Of a stretch of DNA of 44,240 nt, positions 3,349-38,832 are shown piece after piece; the first letter of the stretch is position 1, and each line of letters begins with the position of its first letter. Source of the DNA: a virus; IMG/VR virus record IMGVR_UViG_3300044560_000016; one strand, written 5' to 3'. The notes below the pieces were generated by a model. The model was given only the letters and a program-made list of their open reading frames with translations. It had not been told where the DNA came from and searched no databases. The position numbers and the translations under genes were made by a program.

Positions 3349-3872
3349 TAATTTTTCTCCTTAAGTTGATTTAAGATGTACAGCTGTTGCTTACTTGATC
3401 TTTCATCTGACTGCTGAAATTTTGTTTTAAAAAATTCCATAAATTCTTTTTGCTCATTTGTCAAAAGCTTAATGCTTTTTTCTAATGAACTAATTTTTTC
3501 AAGTAATAACTCTGTAGAATAATCTTTTGCTGAAACATTATTATTAATAATGGTTGATTGATCATTAGATGATCTAATTGGATTATGATTTATATTTAAA
3601 TCATGATGTGCTTTTATCATGTCAGCAGTGGGATAATAATTAATCAATTTTGATGGATTGCAATGAAAATAATTGGCTAATTCTTCTCTCTTTTCTTTAC
3701 TAATTAACGCACGATAAGTACAGTATTTTCTTAAAGTATCTCTCCCCCAATTCAAATCAAGGCTAACTTTTGATTGACTAATTCCTAAGGAATCCAATAA
3801 CTGTTCTACAAATTTAGTATTAATGTAAACATTAGGAGAATCTATCGAATATTTACGAACAGGTCTACTCAT
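3348..3872 (-). CDS. Hypothetical protein, possible HTH DNA-binding N-terminus
   Basis: 174-aa ORF; its TAA overlaps the ATG of the helicase fragment (TAATG). Confidence 0.45.
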   Translation of the reverse strand: MSRPVRKYSIDSPNVYINTKFVEQLLDSLGISQSKVSLDLNWGRDTLRKYCTYRALISKEKREELANYFHCNPSKLINYYPTADMIKAHHDLNINHNPIRSSNDQSTIINNNVSAKDYSTELLLEKISSLEKSIKLLTNEQKEFMEFFKTKFQQSDERSSKQQLYILNQLKEKN

Positions 3873-4098
3873 TTTCTTTTTCCTTCCATAATTTGGCTAC
3901 CATATTGAATGACTGATAGTCTTTTCTTTTAACTGCTCTTTTACCTAAATAACGGAGTTGTGCTTCAAAACTTTCATGGTGCCTGTAAGCTAATCTATAA
4001 GTAATTCTTTTAGCTAAATGCTTATTATCAGCTTTAGCTGCACGATCAAATAATTTAGCTAGTTCCGTATTTGATAAACCTTTAAGACTGATTTTCAT
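3865..4098 (-). CDS. Hypothetical protein
   Basis: 77-aa ORF in an overlapping-gene chain. Confidence 0.45.
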   Translation of the reverse strand: MKISLKGLSNTELAKLFDRAAKADNKHLAKRITYRLAYRHHESFEAQLRYLGKRAVKRKDYQSFNMVAKLWKEKENE

Positions 4099-4478
4099 AA
4101 AACATCTTCAATTTCTTTTAAATCTAACTTGATAGCTTCAATAAAATTTCTAATCCAGGCTGGATTACCTGAATGGCTAATTTCATCAAGCCCAATCTTG
4201 ATATCTTCAACAGCATTTTCGATAACTTCAGATTTTCTTAAGTAGCGATCATGTTCTTGTTCTAACTCTTCTAAGATCCGACTAGCCATTTTGTAATTAG
4301 CATCAATACCATTTTTCTTAGAAGCGAACTTAATTTGCTTTAGTACATCCCGTGGTGGCATTGATGTTAACTTACAAATAATCATAATTTCATCCATAGC
4401 ATGGGTCATGTCGTCTTGTTCTGCAAACTTGCTAAAGCCTTTCATGGCTTCTGTAATATCAATTGAAACTGTAAACAT
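4095..4478 (-). CDS. Hypothetical protein
   Basis: 127-aa ORF, ATGA-type overlaps with both neighbours. Confidence 0.45.
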   Translation of the reverse strand: MFTVSIDITEAMKGFSKFAEQDDMTHAMDEIMIICKLTSMPPRDVLKQIKFASKKNGIDANYKMASRILEELEQEHDRYLRKSEVIENAVEDIKIGLDEISHSGNPAWIRNFIEAIKLDLKEIEDVL

Positions 4479-30663: not shown

Positions 30664-31203
30664 TTATTTCTTAAAAACATCAACCATAGCTTGAACTGGA
30701 TCAGTATTAGCAGGTGTTCCATTACTTGGTTCATAGTTCTGCTTAGTACCTTCATCAAAAATGTATGGAGCTGTTTTGTGAATTTCCTTAATTTGTTCAT
30801 CCAGTCCTGAAAGGTTACCTTGTTCGTCAAGCTTAACCTTATTCATATCCAAGAAACCTTTAATAGCTTTAGTATCTCTGACCTTACTTGCACTTAAAGC
30901 ACGATCAACAGCACTAGTAAGACGTGTTTGATTTAACTTATTAGTAAGATCTGCAGTATCATTCTTATACTTGTTTTGTAATTCCTTGTATGAGTTTGAT
31001 AATTCTTCATTATCCTTAGCATTCTTACGTAAATTCTTTAAATCTTTATCACGTTCAGCCATTTGAGCTTTTAAAGCCTTGTTTTCTTCAACAATTGCAT
31101 CATTACCAGACTTAGCATTATTAATATCTTCACCGTTTAAGTCCATAACAGCTTTAATTTGATCTTCATCAAGTCCTAAATCTTTAAGTTGATTTCTTTT
31201 CAT
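30664..31203 (-). CDS. Capsid scaffolding protein
   Basis: 179-aa charged coiled-coil protein upstream of the capsid gene. Confidence 0.7.
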   Translation of the reverse strand: MKRNQLKDLGLDEDQIKAVMDLNGEDINNAKSGNDAIVEENKALKAQMAERDKDLKNLRKNAKDNEELSNSYKELQNKYKNDTADLTNKLNQTRLTSAVDRALSASKVRDTKAIKGFLDMNKVKLDEQGNLSGLDEQIKEIHKTAPYIFDEGTKQNYEPSNGTPANTDPVQAMVDVFKK

Positions 31204-34783: not shown

Positions 34784-36018
34784 GGGATGTAACCTCCTCC
34801 TTTATAGTGTTCTGAATAAATTCCATACCTTAAGCAGTCCTCACTATCATCATCTTTTTTAATTGGGGCTTCCTTTTTATCGTCCCAAACATAATTAAAA
34901 ATAGTGTCTAGCAAGTTAGGTGCTTCATCTTTGTTAATAATTAATTTTCCTTGTTTGAAATAACTATCTACAAACTCTAAGCCACTCAATACATTTTTAT
35001 TAGCATTAATACAATTGATTTCATTAGCTTGCATCTGATTTACGTAATCAACACGAGCTGAATCAGCCCAAAAGACGATGTTGCCATATTTTTGTTTAAT
35101 CTCTTTGGCAATATCTATCCAGTAATCAATGAATCTATGCTCATGTGCCCATTCCTTAATCAAATAGGATGTGCCTTTGTCATCATCACCAAACAATTGA
35201 ATAACTCCCTTATGTCCTTTACCAAATCCCCAATCAATTGATGCATAATATTTAGTCATTTCTGGTAACTGATCAGTTGTAACAGTCATGGTCTCAATAT
35301 TGAAGTCACTAAATATTTGTCCTTCAGCACTCACCCACTTGCCATAGATCATTCGATCTGTATACATCCCAGAAGGTGTAGCAGCTACTAAAGAATCAAC
35401 ATAATCTTTGGATAAAAAAGTGTTATCAAAGATTGTAAAATTGAAGACTTTGATACGTGCTTTAGGATCTTTATTATCCAAGTAATCCGTTTTAATAAAA
35501 TTTGTAGGACTATCCGGATTACTGGTTATTAGGATTCTTGCTCCTTCAACAGAACAACGGTTGATTATTTCTTGAAATACCCCTTGATCTGCTAAAGTTG
35601 CTTCATCAATCAAAGCGCCATAAGCAGTAGCACCACGAATAGAACCAATACCACGGATTGAACCGGTATAAGCCGGAACTATTTCAACTCCAAATAATGA
35701 ATAGTGACCATGCCTATCAACAGGGATGCTAATACCAAATTCATTCTCAATTGAAGCAATGATGTTTGTATAAATCGAGTTACTAGAATATCCGGCTAAT
35801 ATATAAATTGGTCTTTTAATATTGTTTTTCTTTGCTAACTTTGCGACCCGTTTTAATTCAAGCAACAACATCCAATTTGAAATATATGTTTTACCTGATC
35901 GAACCGCGCCAATCAAAAAAAGATACTTCCAATCATCATTCAAATAAGATTGAAGTACTTTTTGTTGTTTCTTTGTAAATAAATCATTTAATGCCATGCT
36001 ACTTTTTGTCGCTTTCAC
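34774..36018 (-). CDS. terL: Terminase large subunit (PBSX/Terminase_3-like)
   Basis: Walker A GAVRSGKT, LIDEA Walker B, C-terminal nuclease region. Confidence 0.9.
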   Translation of the reverse strand: MKATKSSMALNDLFTKKQQKVLQSYLNDDWKYLFLIGAVRSGKTYISNWMLLLELKRVAKLAKKNNIKRPIYILAGYSSNSIYTNIIASIENEFGISIPVDRHGHYSLFGVEIVPAYTGSIRGIGSIRGATAYGALIDEATLADQGVFQEIINRCSVEGARILITSNPDSPTNFIKTDYLDNKDPKARIKVFNFTIFDNTFLSKDYVDSLVAATPSGMYTDRMIYGKWVSAEGQIFSDFNIETMTVTTDQLPEMTKYYASIDWGFGKGHKGVIQLFGDDDKGTSYLIKEWAHEHRFIDYWIDIAKEIKQKYGNIVFWADSARVDYVNQMQANEINCINANKNVLSGLEFVDSYFKQGKLIINKDEAPNLLDTIFNYVWDDKKEAPIKKDDDSEDCLRYGIYSEHYKGGGYIPWN

Positions 36019-36493
36019 TAATCAACTTATTCATAAGTTCATCAAGTTTATCATCGCCCTCGCTGCCTAAACGCTCAGCAATATTTGCTCTAGCCTCAGA
36101 TATACGAGCATCTGCAGCAAGCTTTTTAAGTTTTTGTTTCTCCATAGGATCAGTTGTTGGATAACGTTTAAGCAATTCCTTTGCTGCAGAAATTCTATCT
36201 TTAGCAGATACAGGAACATCAGGAAAAACACCTTTAGATGTTGCTACATACTCTGTTTCTTTACCTGCTACAACTCTACTCAAATATTCCAAAACTTCAG
36301 CAGCACTTAAAATTTTATGATCTGACAACTCTTTAAGACGCTCATCAATATAAGCTTTCAGGTCAGGTTTAGTCAGGTTCTCTTGACCAATTGACTTTGC
36401 AGTTTTAGGTGAATATCCAGCTTTGATTGCAGACTGTTTAGCATTACCAGATTTTATATATTCATCACAGAATTTCTTTTGTTTAGGAGTCAA
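35999..36493 (-). CDS. terS: Terminase small subunit
   Basis: MTPKQKKFCDEYIKSGNAKQSAIKAGYSPKTAKSIG HTH typical of terS; TTG start. Confidence 0.85.
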   Translation of the reverse strand: MTPKQKKFCDEYIKSGNAKQSAIKAGYSPKTAKSIGQENLTKPDLKAYIDERLKELSDHKILSAAEVLEYLSRVVAGKETEYVATSKGVFPDVPVSAKDRISAAKELLKRYPTTDPMEKQKLKKLAADARISEARANIAERLGSEGDDKLDELMNKLISESDKK

Positions 36494-36525
36494 ATCATAT
36501 CACCACCGCCTTTAGAATTTTGAGT

Positions 36526-36551
36526 AAAATAAAAAGCCAGCTTTGCTGACT
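36526..36551 (-). terminator. Intrinsic terminator closing the RNA locus upstream of terS
   Basis: Minus-strand agtcagc-aaa-gctggct followed by TTTTTATTTT. Confidence 0.5.
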
Positions 36552-36563
36552 TAAAAATATTAA

Positions 36564-36635
36564 AACCTAGGATGGACTTGCACCATCATTGCTGACTTTC
36601 GTAAGTCATGTTTTTTCTAATTAAACTACTAGGCC
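36564..36635 (-). ncRNA. tRNA-shaped element with an aberrant anticodon loop (6 or 8 nt) and a non-canonical T-loop
   Basis: 72 nt: acceptor ggcctag/ctaggtt (two G-U pairs), D stem gttt/aaac, stem tgact/agtca with loop tacgaa, T arm gatgg-tgcaagt-ccatc. Confidence 0.4.
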
Positions 36636-36658
36636 CTTAATTCCGTATTAAGAATTAA

Positions 36659-36729
36659 CAGACTCACCAGGAATCGAACCCAGATAGCTTGATTTGGAGT
36701 CAAGCCGTTTGCCATTAACATATGAGTCT
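36659..36729 (-). tRNA. trnW: tRNA-Trp (anticodon CCA)
   Basis: Hand-folded cloverleaf: 7-bp acceptor agactca/tgagtct, D loop AATGGCA, anticodon stem cttga/tcaag with loop CTCCAAA, T arm ctggg-TTCGATT-cctgg, discriminator G, A1-U72; CCA not encoded. Confidence 0.85.
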
Positions 36730-37060
36730 GGAATGGTGTGCCATAAGCACACCGACAACGTTTACGCTCTGCTCGCTCGCCTCAGTACCGTTAAAAACGG
36801 GAGGGTCTTCGCAAGCTATGCACAAGGCTGGACTTTCACCAGCACCACCGCAACTGCAATAGTCGGACGTGTCATTTTACCGTTTAGGTTTTCATGTGCG
36901 CCACTGAATATTTAAAACGAAGGTGCAATTTATTTAACGACGCTTGCTAACGTCACTGCGGCTGATGCGGGACTTCAACCCGCCTGCGTGTACTGCAGAT
37001 CAAATGTCAATTAACAAGAACGGTAACCACACGAGATCAGCCTGTTGTTTTGTCTTAAGA
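36730..37060 (-). ncRNA. Hairpin-dense, G+C-enriched non-coding segment of unknown RNA class
   Basis: Hairpins at 36735-36753 (7 bp), 36788-36800 and 36827-36843 (5 bp, 7-nt loop), plus the tRNA-like module at 36959-37042; no ORF with a ribosome-binding site. Confidence 0.5.
36959..37042 (-). ncRNA. tRNA-like element with a long variable arm and an atypical T-loop
   Basis: Perfect 7-bp acceptor ggctgat/atcagcc, T arm gcggg-TTGAAGT-cccgc, extra arm ctgc-agtacac-gcag, candidate anticodon arm gttaa-TTGACAT-ttgat (two G-U pairs), poor D arm. Confidence 0.4.
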
Positions 37061-37104
37061 AGTATTTCTTAATTTTTCGACAATACTATATTAACGTGTA
37101 ATGA

Positions 37105-37162
37105 ATACGTTTAGCGTACGTATTCCGTACTTTATCCGTACGTTATACGTTATTCGTACGCT
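37105..37162. repeat. Array of ~11-bp phased direct repeats (minus-strand GTACGGAATAA-like) overlapping the ArpU gene 3' end
   Basis: TACG/GTAC cores at 37106, 37117, 37128, 37139, 37146 and 37157; followed on the minus strand by TATAGT (37085-37090). Confidence 0.6.
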
Positions 37163-37590
37163 AGTAATCTTATAACTTTGTCACAATGATTCTTTATTTG
37201 CCATCCCTCAAAAGAATAAGCAAAAGTAAGTAATGCTCTTTTTCTGTAAGTCGCAAATGAAGTGTGTTCTCTATATACCAGAGGTTGAATATCTACCCAT
37301 CTTTGATGATTGATATATAACCCAATCAAGATTTTTTGTGAAACTGGATCTACACCATGATATAAAGCATCGTGAACAGATTTAACAACGTTCTGAGCAT
37401 CTAAACCATTAATTAACTTAGTTTCAATACCGTTTGCCTCACTTGAGCCATAGTTTTCTTCAAAACTAGGTGATGATAGATCAACCATCCTACTACCACT
37501 CATAAGGACTATTTTTTCTAAATCGTCTTTGAAAAAGTTACTTACATTATCATACGTTTTAACAGCATCAACTTTAGGTACTAACTCCAC
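37150..37590 (-). CDS. ArpU-family late transcriptional regulator
   Basis: 146 aa, GTG start, located immediately upstream of the packaging module as in LAB phages; C-terminal YRKRALLTFAY region. Confidence 0.6.
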   Translation of the reverse strand: MELVPKVDAVKTYDNVSNFFKDDLEKIVLMSGSRMVDLSSPSFEENYGSSEANGIETKLINGLDAQNVVKSVHDALYHGVDPVSQKILIGLYINHQRWVDIQPLVYREHTSFATYRKRALLTFAYSFEGWQIKNHCDKVIRLLAYE

Positions 37591-37594
37591 ATAA

Positions 37595-37708
37595 TCACTC
37601 CATAAATTTTCTCAGTGCCTCGGTTCCAGCAACAGAAACTGGAATTTTATGTTCCTTGCACCATTCAACAAATAAATCGTAAGTATAACTATCTACTAGT
37701 AACTCCAT
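37595..37708 (-). CDS. Small hypothetical protein (37 aa)
   Basis: Manual ORF MELLVDSYTYDLFVEWCKEHKIPVSVAGTEALRKFME*; TAATG overlap with the upstream gene. Confidence 0.3.
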   Translation of the reverse strand: MELLVDSYTYDLFVEWCKEHKIPVSVAGTEALRKFME

Positions 37709-38247
37709 TAATAGTCCTCCTCATAAATATAGGAATCAATACCAGTTCGTATAACCGGTTTATCTAGGTAAGGCGGCAAATAATAGCAACCGTTGCGGAT
37801 AAAGCACCAATGATATTTACCTTGATAAACCTTATACTTTCTAGATTTTAAAAATTCTATTCGACTGCCTTTAGAGGGTGCATACATAAAATGTGAACTT
37901 ACAAATTGGCGCAAGTTAGTAATGTAATACGTATCACCCGTTGGCGAAGCAATCCGATATTTGAAAACCGTTTTCAATCGAATCCCATTATTCTTTATAA
38001 AGTTTATGATCCGGTTATTGTCACCAGGTATTTGATCAACAATTTCCCCGATCGAATAGCCTTCATGCGCTAATTTATAAATTTTATTTTTATAAATATT
38101 AGCTAAGCCTGCATGCTTATTTGAAGGATACAGTTTACGAATAGCTACATAATCTGGATCATCTTCAGGACAATTGACTATTGAACCATACTTAGATTCA
38201 ATACTATTTACCAGCATTAATATTTCTTGATATTTAGTCATAACCAT
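37708..38247 (-). CDS. Hypothetical protein
   Basis: 179-aa ORF after the HNH endonuclease. Confidence 0.45.
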   Translation of the reverse strand: MVMTKYQEILMLVNSIESKYGSIVNCPEDDPDYVAIRKLYPSNKHAGLANIYKNKIYKLAHEGYSIGEIVDQIPGDNNRIINFIKNNGIRLKTVFKYRIASPTGDTYYITNLRQFVSSHFMYAPSKGSRIEFLKSRKYKVYQGKYHWCFIRNGCYYLPPYLDKPVIRTGIDSYIYEEDY

Positions 38248-38250
38248 AAC

Positions 38251-38832
38251 TCACGCGTATCTCCATAAATAACCATTATGACTTTTATGTTTACCACGAC
38301 AACAATCAGAAATACCATCTTGTTTGGATCCAGTTTTTCTAGCAGCTTCACTTTGAGATGGATAAACATGTAATTGTTTTCCATTCAAATCTAACTGCTC
38401 TACTGCTTTAGAAGCTTTCTTGCCGTTTTTTATTGCAATTTTTCTATTTCTTTTTCCATTTAGGCTTAATTTCAAATTATGATTGCCATAGTTATTGTTA
38501 TATGAATAAGTACACCATTCTAAATTTGAAACATTATTATTCTTAGGATTTTCATCTTTATGATTAACACAAGGTAGATCATTAGGATTAGGGATAAACG
38601 CTTGAGCTACTAGCCTTTGAATTTCTATAGTTTTTCCATTTTTATGTCCATCATATAAGATCACACTAAGATAGCCCTTGATTTTATGAAGTCTTAATTT
38701 TAAAATCTTGCCTTTTAAATTTGCAAAAGTGTAGCCATTCCATCGTTTTCGGTCTAAACTTTTAACTCTTCCTAAATTTGATACTTGGTATCTTCCTTCA
38801 TATCCTTGAACATCTTTCCAGATTTCTTTCAT
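38251..38832 (-). CDS. HNH homing-type endonuclease with a NUMOD4-like N-terminus
   Basis: WKDVQGYEGRYQVSNLGRVKS and VNHKDENPKNNNVSNLEW motifs. Confidence 0.8.
   Translation of the reverse strand: MKEIWKDVQGYEGRYQVSNLGRVKSLDRKRWNGYTFANLKGKILKLRLHKIKGYLSVILYDGHKNGKTIEIQRLVAQAFIPNPNDLPCVNHKDENPKNNNVSNLEWCTYSYNNNYGNHNLKLSLNGKRNRKIAIKNGKKASKAVEQLDLNGKQLHVYPSQSEAARKTGSKQDGISDCCRGKHKSHNGYLWRYA

Follow-up and report, generated by a model that had tools for sequence, protein, structure and literature searches.

A tRNA cluster dominated by putative non-decoding tRNA mimics between the late regulator gene and terS of a Lactobacillus phage

The window analysed here is the whole of a 44,240-nt stretch of viral DNA (IMG/VR record IMGVR_UViG_3300044560_000016), and in the 656-nt gap between its ArpU-family late regulator gene and terS (36494-37149) it carries a phage tRNA cluster dominated by a new family of non-decoding tRNA mimics. 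Read along the minus strand from 37094 to 36526, the order is a promoter-like box, module 1, hairpin C, module 2, module 3, tRNA-Trp(CCA), module 4 and a terminator. A first-pass annotation made from the sequence alone had described a minus-strand, non-coding RNA locus downstream of a late regulator, holding a real tRNA and tRNA-shaped modules, and this description is supported. The gap contains only short open reading frames (ORFs), including that at 36694..36915 on the plus strand, and as gap ORFs are interrupted by indels of 2 nt and of 15-57 nt in homologous loci they are not conserved reading frames. The G+C content is also raised, as had been noticed, from 0.32-0.36 in the AT-rich flanks to 0.43-0.50 over 36600-36999. 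As to whether the locus is a degenerate tRNA array or something new, the answer falls in between: a tRNA-derived array, at least two members of which are conserved, selected, non-decoding mimics.

A conserved family of tRNA mimics

Module 2 (36819..36899, minus strand) is a cloverleaf tRNA mimic which scores 90.4 bits at 36812-36903 with a covariance model, R1, built from 15 module 2 sequences. It was recognised by comparing the window with the related loci L062 and L010 (L numbers denote such loci throughout), from which the hairpin at 36827-36843 could be identified as its T arm. The two tRNA-shaped modules annotated originally are both present (modules 1 and 4), and module 2 (36899-36819) is a third; likewise, all of the hairpins listed at 36735-36753, 36788-36800 and 36827-36843 exist, but the last is not free-standing. 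The 7-bp acceptor stem of module 2 (GCACAUG/CUUGUGC) has one U.U mismatch and is followed by the discriminator A and then UAG. Within it lie a D-like hairpin of 3-4 bp, a 13-nt linker (AAAAUGACACGU), an anticodon-position hairpin with a 6-bp bulged stem and, in the window, a 5-nt loop, then UGGU and the T arm GCUGG-UGAAAGU-CCAGC. Across the family the apical loop at the anticodon position is 3-5 nt long and variable and there is no anticodon loop, hence module 2 cannot decode. Rfam was searched at gathering scores over the whole window and at E<=10, with relaxed filters, over the 901 nt of 36400-37300; module 2 has no tRNA match in the latter search, and its homologues never reached the tRNA gathering score in 21 related loci.

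Loci carrying module 2 were gathered from IMG/VR (through terS and with two independent sequence patterns), from GTDB genomes and from metagenomes. R1 finds 45 copies at 84-106 bits, 29 of which are distinct, in Lactobacillus phages, prophages and metagenomes. With the exception of three chance matches the GTDB matches are to Lactobacillus only, and the named hosts all belong to this genus (L. gigeriorum, L. hamsteri and uncultured Lactobacillus metagenome-assembled genomes); a T-arm pattern search for divergent members added only three loci. Neither Rfam 15 nor the 50,697 GenBank phage records that were searched contain the family, and nothing relevant to it came up in the literature searched. 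A weak R1 match elsewhere in the window (30872-30955) was dismissed, as it lies inside a 179-aa ORF.

Covariation was counted twice, in the 15-sequence set and in the set of 29 distinct sequences. In the larger set 94.4% of stem cells are paired, compared with 28-39% when the partners are slid by 1-3 columns, and compensatory change is seen in 13 of the 23 pairs (seven in the acceptor, three in the D-like stem and three in the T stem). The covariation score of 0.376 compares with 0.147 +/- 0.011 for shuffled alignments and was reached by none of 500 shuffles. Pairing is kept in all of the T-stem variants GCUGG/CCAGC, AUGGG/CCCAU, ACAGG/CCUGU, GUUGG/CCAAC and UCUGG/CCAGA. Variation is confined mainly to the stems, where nearly every position is affected, and to the apical loop; the linker, the anticodon-position stem, UGGU and the T-loop are invariant bar three columns. 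Of the two search patterns, one left the T arm free and the other the linker and the 5' half of the stem, and the same conserved sequences were returned by both. Taken together, these sequence comparisons demonstrate a conserved family under selection for both cloverleaf pairing and an invariant unpaired core. Conservation and covariation among aligned homologues, on which the first-pass annotation had made an RNA locus depend, are therefore found, and in module 1 as well as in module 2.

The features by which members of the family are proposed to be recognised are all found in the window: the linker AAAAAGACACGU, a CCGACU-loop-AGU-NN-CGG arm, UGGU, a UG(U/A)AAGU T arm and an ArpU-type gene upstream. 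The window and L006 differ from the other copies by an A to U change in the linker and a U to A change at T-loop position 3, a double change that is suggestive of a tertiary pair replacing the G19-C56 elbow contact of tRNA, if on the strength of a single event. Wherever the flank and an ArpU homologue could be detected, module 2 lies ~150-300 nt downstream of the ArpU-family gene, the exception being L094 at ~1.7 kb, and upstream of terS or terL; these ArpU homologues show 37-98% protein identity to that of the window. Module 2 is usually followed by an ordinary tRNA (Tyr, Trp, Arg or Met), and in L092 and L095 it is accompanied only by further non-canonical tRNA-like modules. The complement of the invariant core was searched for in the window and none was found beyond chance. 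One copy, at 4831-4924 of L090 (equal to L144, a Lactobacillus gigeriorum prophage), combines a window-type 5' acceptor strand with an L093-type 3' strand and looks like a recombinant of two module 2 lineages.

The remaining members of the array

Module 1 (36958..37042, minus strand) is a tRNA-like RNA of 85 nt which ARAGORN calls 'tRNA-Val(gac)', and it has no Rfam tRNA match in the search at E<=10. It consists of a 7-bp acceptor (GGCUGAU/AUCAGCC), the T arm GCGGG-UUGAAGU-CCCGC, a hairpin resembling a variable arm and a 6-bp long-range helix, which reads CGUGUG/UACACG in the window and UGUACG/UGUACA in the other of the two sequence types into which the 15 distinct homologues fall. The acceptor stem, the 5-bp T arm and the long-range helix are all predicted by RNAalifold from the alignment of these 15 sequences, in which 98% of the cells are paired and 10 pairs, three acceptor and three T pairs among them, show compensatory change, mostly stemming from the split between the two types. 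A local hairpin is also kept (CUGC/GCAG in the window; CCG/CGG or CUG/CAG elsewhere), and the stem-loop that ARAGORN takes for a GAC anticodon is not conserved in the second type (type B).

The canonical tRNA-Trp(CCA) at 36658..36730 (minus strand), already annotated as such, is called by ARAGORN and scores 54.8 bits with the Rfam tRNA model, the alignment to which reveals a D loop with GG, the T-loop UUCGAUU and an anticodon loop of 7 nt (CUCCAAA). In the homologue of this tRNA in L121 (13287-13368) the acceptor and T arm are kept and the anticodon domain is remodelled.

Module 4 (36562..36636, minus strand) is an aberrant tRNA, called 'tRNA-???(acga)' by ARAGORN and scoring 38.6 bits with the Rfam tRNA model. 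Its acceptor, D and T arms are tRNA-like, with a UGCAAGU T-loop and without GG in the D loop, and its anticodon loop UUACGAAA is of 8 nt, or of 6 nt if a closing U-A pair is formed. The homologues in L010, L062, L098 and L121 are tRNA-Arg(UCU) genes with the 7-nt loop AUUCUAA, which likewise have the UGCAAGU T-loop and no GG in the D loop; the loop of the window is shared with L159 and L102, L009 has UCUCGAAA, and elsewhere the loop is of 6 nt (AACUAA, AACGAA) and its stem shows compensatory changes. In total there are seven anticodon-arm variants, including deletion of the arm, on acceptor, D and T arms which, together with the terminator that follows, are near-invariant. Judged by these variants, module 4 is clearly derived from a tRNA-Arg(UCU)-like gene.

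ARAGORN makes three tRNA calls in the gap, all on the minus strand (modules 1 and 4 and tRNA-Trp), and misses module 2; at gathering scores Rfam returns two tRNA matches for the locus and nothing further over the whole window, tRNA-Trp and module 4 being those that pass the threshold of 29 bits. Among the four cloverleaf-like genes, only tRNA-Trp has a standard 7-nt anticodon loop on a 5-bp stem, and standard triplet decoding is thus not expected of modules 1, 2 and 4. The elbow nucleotides (G18 G19; U54 U55 C56) are present in tRNA-Trp and not in these three. What modules 1, 2 and 4 have is the 'top half' of a tRNA, a 7-bp acceptor contiguous with a 5-bp T stem (supported by covariation in modules 1 and 2 and by the Rfam alignment in module 4) and a U-N-N-A-A-G-U T-loop, with an anticodon domain that has been replaced in modules 1 and 2 and varies freely in module 4. 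The three 5-bp stems with 7-nt TNNAAGT loops noticed on the minus strand from the outset (TTGAAGT, TGAAAGT and TGCAAGT) can be confirmed in the sequence of modules 1, 2 and 4, respectively; at one mismatch or fewer the motif GGTGNAAGTCC has five matches in the window, against 1.0 expected, three of which fall in this region. With R1, module 4 reaches ~30 bits and module 1 reaches 17-24 bits, so that the three modules are alike in shape and probably share an origin.

Folding of single sequences is uninformative: the z score of the whole region is -2.2 for the minus strand and -2.6 for the plus strand, and that of the 227-nt centre is -0.75.

tRNA-like genes with abnormal anticodon loops occur in related phages, namely those at L021 2812-2887 ('agag') and L023 916-995 ('taaa'), both with 8-nt loops, and the tRNA-Phe 'aaa' of L016, L017 and L018. 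Loss of decoding with retention of the top half looks, from these sequences, to be recurrent in this phage group.

Two further elements are found between the cloverleaf-like genes. Hairpin C, GACGUU-AGCA-AGCGUC (36954-36939), together with its conserved tail GUUAAAUAAAUUGCACCUUCG / GUUAAAUAAAUUGCACC occupies 36918..36954 on the minus strand and precedes module 2, from which it lies at about -54 in most loci; it has one compensatory change, from GACGUU/AGCGUC to GGCGUU/AGCGCC. Module 3 (36735..36818, minus strand) comprises the stem GCUUGC/GCGAGC around GAAGACCC with a variable apical insert, here the hairpin 36800-36788, followed by AAACGUUG and a strong hairpin, GGUGUGC-UUAUG-GCACACC (36753-36735). 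Close relatives have homologues of it, as has the distant L092/L095 group (where they lie ~135 nt downstream of module 2), and these differ by a U.G to U-A change, by variable inserts and by unlike strong-hairpin sequences. A group II intron remnant was rejected here, the group-II-D1D4-4 match over module 3 (13.5 bits against a cutoff of 49; E 2.1) being treated as chance. The 18-mer GCUGGUGAAAGUCCAGC is also present in genuine group II introns and a twister-sister ribozyme, and so it represents a generic T-loop hairpin. This 18-mer was the route by which an unrelated 5.2-kb viral contig (L008 1114-4465) was encountered, which has six twister-sister ribozymes scoring 74-85 bits.

Accessory distribution of the array

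The nearest relatives in GenBank are the Lactobacillus helveticus phages CR28 and P185, with ~90% DNA identity over the ArpU gene, terS and terL. Between the promoter-like box and terS (94.5% identical to that of the window) they have unrelated AT-rich sequence, a terminator and a small ORF, with no tRNA and no array, and no GenBank phage record matches the middle of the region. By sequence comparison, then, the array is shown to be an accessory insert. At this site the tRNAs of related phages vary (Tyr, Lys, Gln, Met, Arg, Trp, Phe and Glu), and so do the modules: module 1 and hairpin C are both missing from L093 and L089, which do have module 2, in L010 modules 1 and 2 abut and are followed by ~1 kb with ORFs before module 4, and the deletions in L009, L006, L170, L147, L151 and L155 are each limited to one module. 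As the modules vary independently and every one is closed by its own acceptor-like stem, the locus is an array of ~80-nt RNAs rather than a single fold of the GOLLD or ROOL type. The idea of a single RNA of ~590 nt is not supported by these observations.

In the Ligilactobacillus murinus phage phiEF-1.1 (L172, MF041990, 1500-1720) hairpin C and its tail have a near-copy in the same place of the genome. Also present, and like it unannotated, are a GAAGACC-type hairpin, a tRNA-like top half with the T-loop UGCAAUU and a terminator, after which come two small hypothetical ORFs and, ~480 nt further on, terS. Despite these related hairpins phiEF-1.1 is without module 2; its elements do imply that the late-leader RNA theme reaches beyond Lactobacillus sensu stricto.

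The late leader of L010 contains a solitary GTTTTAGATGATTGTTAGATCAATAAGG at 2735-2765 (the same contig as L104 4044-4067), found on one contig among the 171 loci. We take it to resemble the Lactobacillus gasseri-type II-A CRISPR repeat, and it could conceivably be an RNA anti-CRISPR or a tracr-like element. Mimicry of a CRISPR repeat was rejected for the window, in which neither GTTTTAGATGATTGTTAGATCAATAAGG nor any other Lactobacillus-type repeat is found.

Presumed expression signals of the late leader

Just past the ArpU stop codon lie phased CGTAC/ACGTA repeats with an 11-bp period (37105..37163, strand not assigned), consisting of four copies of CGTAC at spacings of 11, 11 and 18 bp together with inverted repeats. 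GTAC repeats are found at the same place in CR28 and P185, and the stretch is presumed to be a regulator-binding region. It is followed by the promoter-like box TTAATATAGTATTGTCGAAAA (37074..37094, minus strand), with TATAGT at 37090-37085. Under a strict regular expression the box TAT(A/T)(A/G)T(A/G)GTATTGTCGAAAA is present upstream of module 2 in 34 of 40 contexts, with near-variants in the remaining ones, and the form ...CACGTTATTATAGTATTGTCGAAAAATTAAGG is common to CR28 and P185, which are without the RNA array. The box is presumed to be an ArpU-dependent late promoter and the start of the transcript; a sigma-70 promoter scan made no call there, as is expected if the promoter is activator-dependent. 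The leader then has a hairpin, UUAAGAA-AUAC-UUCUUAA (37055..37072, minus strand), which was read from the sequence and is identical in L009 and L006.

At the far end of the array the terminator scan finds an intrinsic terminator, AAGUCAGC-AAA-GCUGGCUU and a U-run (36526..36552, minus strand; hairpin 36552-36534), ~40 nt upstream of the TTG start of terS (36493). In most loci its conservation goes with that of module 4, and 29-35 nt are 100% identical. The locus is therefore bracketed by a phased-repeat/TATAGT region and an intrinsic terminator, just as the first-pass annotation had it. Terminators are also found in the leaders of CR28 and P185, and the ~40 nt before terS leave no space for a promoter, so that late expression in this phage group probably requires antitermination or terminator read-through.

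A C/U-rich element lies 25-55 nt upstream of module 2, at 36918-36938 in the window and with equivalents in L062, L098, L092 and L095, and its forms, which include UUGCACCUUCG, UUGCUCCUUGAAA and AACCUCCUUU, bear a likeness to the anti-Shine-Dalgarno sequence. Placed after a hairpin as it is, it also resembles the rrn boxA of Firmicutes (UGUUCUUUGAAAA), a hint that antitermination may be signalled here in the manner of nut or boxA. The small ORFs of the opposite strand are not conserved.

Interpretation and alternatives

The explanation we favour, tentatively and with rather less than even confidence, is that one tRNA and several tRNA mimics form a late-expressed operon here, situated in the leader of the operon of packaging and structural genes in a Lactobacillus prophage. 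Its parts are not equally secure. It is very likely that the modules are structurally selected, non-decoding tRNA-like RNAs, and their excision by tRNA-processing enzymes is somewhat probable, but for the mimics to act in trans as decoys is a possibility that we regard as doubtful. Slightly more doubtful again is the specific proposal that modules 1, 2 and 4 would be late phage RNA decoys which jam a host tRNA-targeting immune or toxin enzyme that recognises the acceptor/T-arm shape.

The proposed sequence of events would begin with ArpU turning on transcription at the conserved box late in infection. Host RNase P would then cut the 5' ends of the modules and RNase Z would cut after the discriminator, yielding stable tRNA-sized RNAs, with the 12-bp acceptor-plus-T helix as the element that both enzymes would gauge. 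No module encodes CCA, and in each the discriminator is followed by U, a nucleotide that at this position favours RNase Z. The tRNA-Trp may supplement translation or replace a depleted host tRNA, whilst the mimics would be trans-acting tRNA-shaped ligands, likeliest as decoys or competitive inhibitors of a host protein that reads tRNA shape, such as an abortive-infection or toxin enzyme directed at tRNA. The terminator would halt transcription that has not been antiterminated before it reaches terS. A decoy role in trans is favoured because the core of module 2 is invariant and unpaired, which would be needless for a mere processing signal, because the array is accessory, and because the site is a fast-changing tRNA island, of a kind now tied to counter-defence (PMC13096335). 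The lack of a known partner is what keeps this step at its low grading.

Several points weigh against this explanation. No candidate partner protein was found, the neighbouring phrog_11108 not being consistently linked, and all function is assigned from the sequence. The module 2 family is one genus wide and many of its compensatory changes may stem from a few ancestral splits, in which case the shuffle statistics overstate independence; part of the core invariance, moreover, is enforced by the search patterns themselves. Module 2 of L090/L144 has a chimeric, unpaired acceptor stem, module 1 of L009 has suffered a 57-nt deletion, hairpin C is deleted in L170, and the anticodon arm of module 4 is deleted in L147, L151 and L155. 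As modules are lost or damaged lineage by lineage, no single one of them can be essential. Finally, a terminator between the array and terS sits awkwardly with a simple late-operon leader unless antitermination occurs.

Of the alternatives, the one that deserves most consideration, although we judge it improbable, is that the modules are cis-acting processing signals (tRNA punctuation), at which RNase P and RNase Z would cut free the real tRNAs and set or stabilise the ends of the late transcript, with possible control over use of the leader terminator, the excised mimics themselves having no function in trans. Conservation in modules 1, 2 and 4 is confined to the top half, the part seen by RNase P, RNase Z and the CCA-adding enzyme; the modules are always found in the leader, past the promoter-like box and ahead of the late genes, module 4 always goes with the terminator that immediately precedes those genes, and phiEF-1.1 has the same arrangement of top half and terminator before its late genes. 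However, neither the invariant 13-nt linker nor the equally invariant anticodon-position stem of module 2 would be needed for this purpose, the same late genes are expressed in CR28 and P185, which have no module at all, and L092 and L095 have module 2 with no tRNA at Rfam gathering score nearby, and thus nothing obvious to release. It is less probable still that the array is a degenerate one, made up of decaying and functionless phage tRNA pseudogenes kept by recency or by linkage to a functional tRNA. This would account for the descent of module 4 from a tRNA-Arg(UCU)-like gene through changes in loop length and deletion of an arm, for the deletions in modules 1 and 3 and hairpin C in some loci, for the chimeric acceptor stem of L090, and for the ~30 bits given to module 4 by R1, which suggest a common ancestry. 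Random decay, on the other hand, would strike acceptor and T stems as frequently as it strikes anticodon arms, whereas many double changes have left 94-98% of stem cells paired; no variation is seen in the unpaired core of module 2, although the ArpU protein drops to 37-45% identity; and module 2 is found in loci with no adjacent canonical tRNA.

The three other alternatives are each very improbable. A single large ornate RNA of the GOLLD/ROOL kind, spanning the whole ~520-nt segment, was suggested by a GC-enriched, hairpin-dense prophage region beside tRNA genes in the Lactobacillus lineage, to which the whole-region folding z of -2.2 may be added. A relation to either class finds no support in the Rfam results: there is no match to GOLLD, ROOL or another large RNA, to tmRNA or to any riboswitch at E<=10 over 36400-37300 even with relaxed filters, and no GOLLD, ROOL or other large RNA at gathering scores in the window or in the 21 related loci. 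The combinations and spacings of the modules differ between loci (L093, L010), deletions in L009, L006 and L170 are internal to the segment, and each module closes on its own acceptor-like stem. It might also be argued that the repeated GGTGNAAGTCC hairpins are DNA sites, whether a pac site recognised by terS or targets of a regulator, since three copies stand just upstream of terS and pac sites are often in or near that gene. Yet the flanking stems change in sequence and keep their complementarity, and selection is therefore on RNA pairing and not on DNA sequence; CR28 and P185, for all the 94.5% identity of their terS, are entirely without the motif region. On these same two grounds the packaging (cos/pac) site that had been offered as an alternative to an RNA locus is judged unlikely. 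The last alternative takes module 4, with its 8-nt anticodon loop, for a functional quadruplet-reading tRNA and frameshift suppressor, as ARAGORN reads a 4-base anticodon, ACGA, in an otherwise tRNA-like gene, and 8-nt loops recur in the tRNA-like genes of related phages (L021 'agag', L023 'taaa'). In close relatives the gene has instead a loop of 6 nt, another 8-nt loop, an ordinary UCU loop of 7 nt or no arm whatsoever, the canonical elbow nucleotides are absent from the D and T loops, and among the adjacent genes, the only ones looked at, none requires a frameshift, terS and terL being intact ORFs.

Comparison with known RNAs and systems

Bacteriophage T4 carries a pair of small RNAs known as RNAC and RNAD, which have tRNA-like termini and processing in common with the neighbouring tRNAs. 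They are described (PMC3014915) as small non-coding RNAs of the phage tRNA region whose biological role is unknown. Like them, the modules are small RNAs within, and co-oriented with, a phage tRNA cluster; unlike them, to which they have no sequence relation, the modules form complete cloverleaf mimics that have a distinctive T-loop, UGNAAGU, to which module 2 adds an invariant linker, and they stand in the late-operon leader of a temperate siphovirus-type Lactobacillus phage. RNAC and RNAD are the nearest published analogue for unexplained small RNAs in a phage tRNA cluster.

GOLLD (RF01998) and ROOL (RF03087) resemble the locus in being prophage-borne, found in Lactobacillales, situated beside tRNA genes and richly structured, but each is a single fold of 500-800 nt as opposed to independent modules of ~80 nt. 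After tRNA, the best sub-threshold Rfam match is the SpF41 sRNA of Streptococcus (RF02435), over module 4 and the terminator (36526-36639; 25.7 bits, E 0.13, gathering score 52). This too is a tRNA-like cloverleaf directly before an intrinsic terminator, although the T arm of its consensus is the canonical GGUUCGAAUCC and module 4 has GGUGCAAGUCC. Matches at E<=10 comprised, besides SpF41_sRNA, group-II-D1D4-4 and snoRNA noise. A tmRNA was rejected, there being no ARAGORN tmRNA call, no Rfam tmRNA family and no tag ORF.

RNAs that keep the acceptor/T stack of tRNA and replace the anticodon domain are otherwise known from the tRNA-like domain of tmRNA, the 3' structures of plant viruses, mascRNA and the Y-RNA YrlA, and they are recognised by tRNA-processing or tRNA-binding enzymes. 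The modules differ from these in having no tag ORF, no Rsr/Ro neighbour, no T-loop U55/C56 and no GG in the D loop. The gene layout of the locus is that of Stx phage 933W, in which ileZ-argN-argO lie downstream of Q/pR', such that late regulator, late promoter, tRNA genes and late genes follow each other; related Lactobacillus phages also have ordinary tRNAs at this site, whereas in the window one of the four cloverleaf-like genes is a normal tRNA and the others are without a standard anticodon loop. Phage tRNA loci can also be anti-defence loci, as is documented for that of T6 against Septu (PMC13096335). The likeness to T6 is that of an accessory, fast-turnover phage tRNA island in which the tRNA identities vary among relatives. 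The T6 locus, however, supplies decoding tRNAs which replace cleaved host tRNAs; the modules here cannot decode, and any counter-defence role would therefore have to be as decoys.

Phage tRNA islands are now seen as counter-defence loci and their non-tRNA content is largely unexplored; in Lactobacillus phages, which matter to dairy starters and to the gut and vaginal microbiota, the most conserved occupant of the island is a tRNA-shaped RNA unable to decode. Should it act in trans, it would represent a compact, naturally occurring mimic of tRNA whose elbow is non-canonical, and a possible handle for finding the host factor; were the decoy reading true, this would be anti-defence at the level of RNA, distinct from the supply of replacement tRNAs. 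If the array is only a processing cassette, its interest would be modest and specialist. In either case automated annotation will mislabel such loci, as ARAGORN labels two of the modules 'tRNA-Val' and 'tRNA-???' and misses the third.

Neighbouring genes

The ArpU-family late regulator gene (37150..37590, minus strand) matches TIGR01637 at 52.6 bits (cutoff 43.1) and PHROG 248 'transcriptional activator'. On the other side of the array, terS (35999..36493, minus strand; TTG start at 36493) matches Pfam Terminase_2 with an E value of 3.6e-36, and terL is next. Upstream of the ArpU gene lies the gene of a 179-aa protein, phrog_11108 (37708-38247, minus strand), which has no Pfam match and which in the array-less CR28 and P185 is cut to a remnant of 44-48 aa (L001 and L002, 1375-1518). 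It was considered as a partner protein of the array and rejected, as the link is not strict: L089 has module 2 without the phrog_11108 gene.

A homing-endonuclease gene with NUMOD4, HNH_3 and NUMOD1 domains (38251-38832, minus strand) is situated 1.1 kb upstream of the array. A homologue 43% identical to it is inserted between terS and terL in L009 (about 3600-4100), behaviour which is typical of mobile endonucleases.

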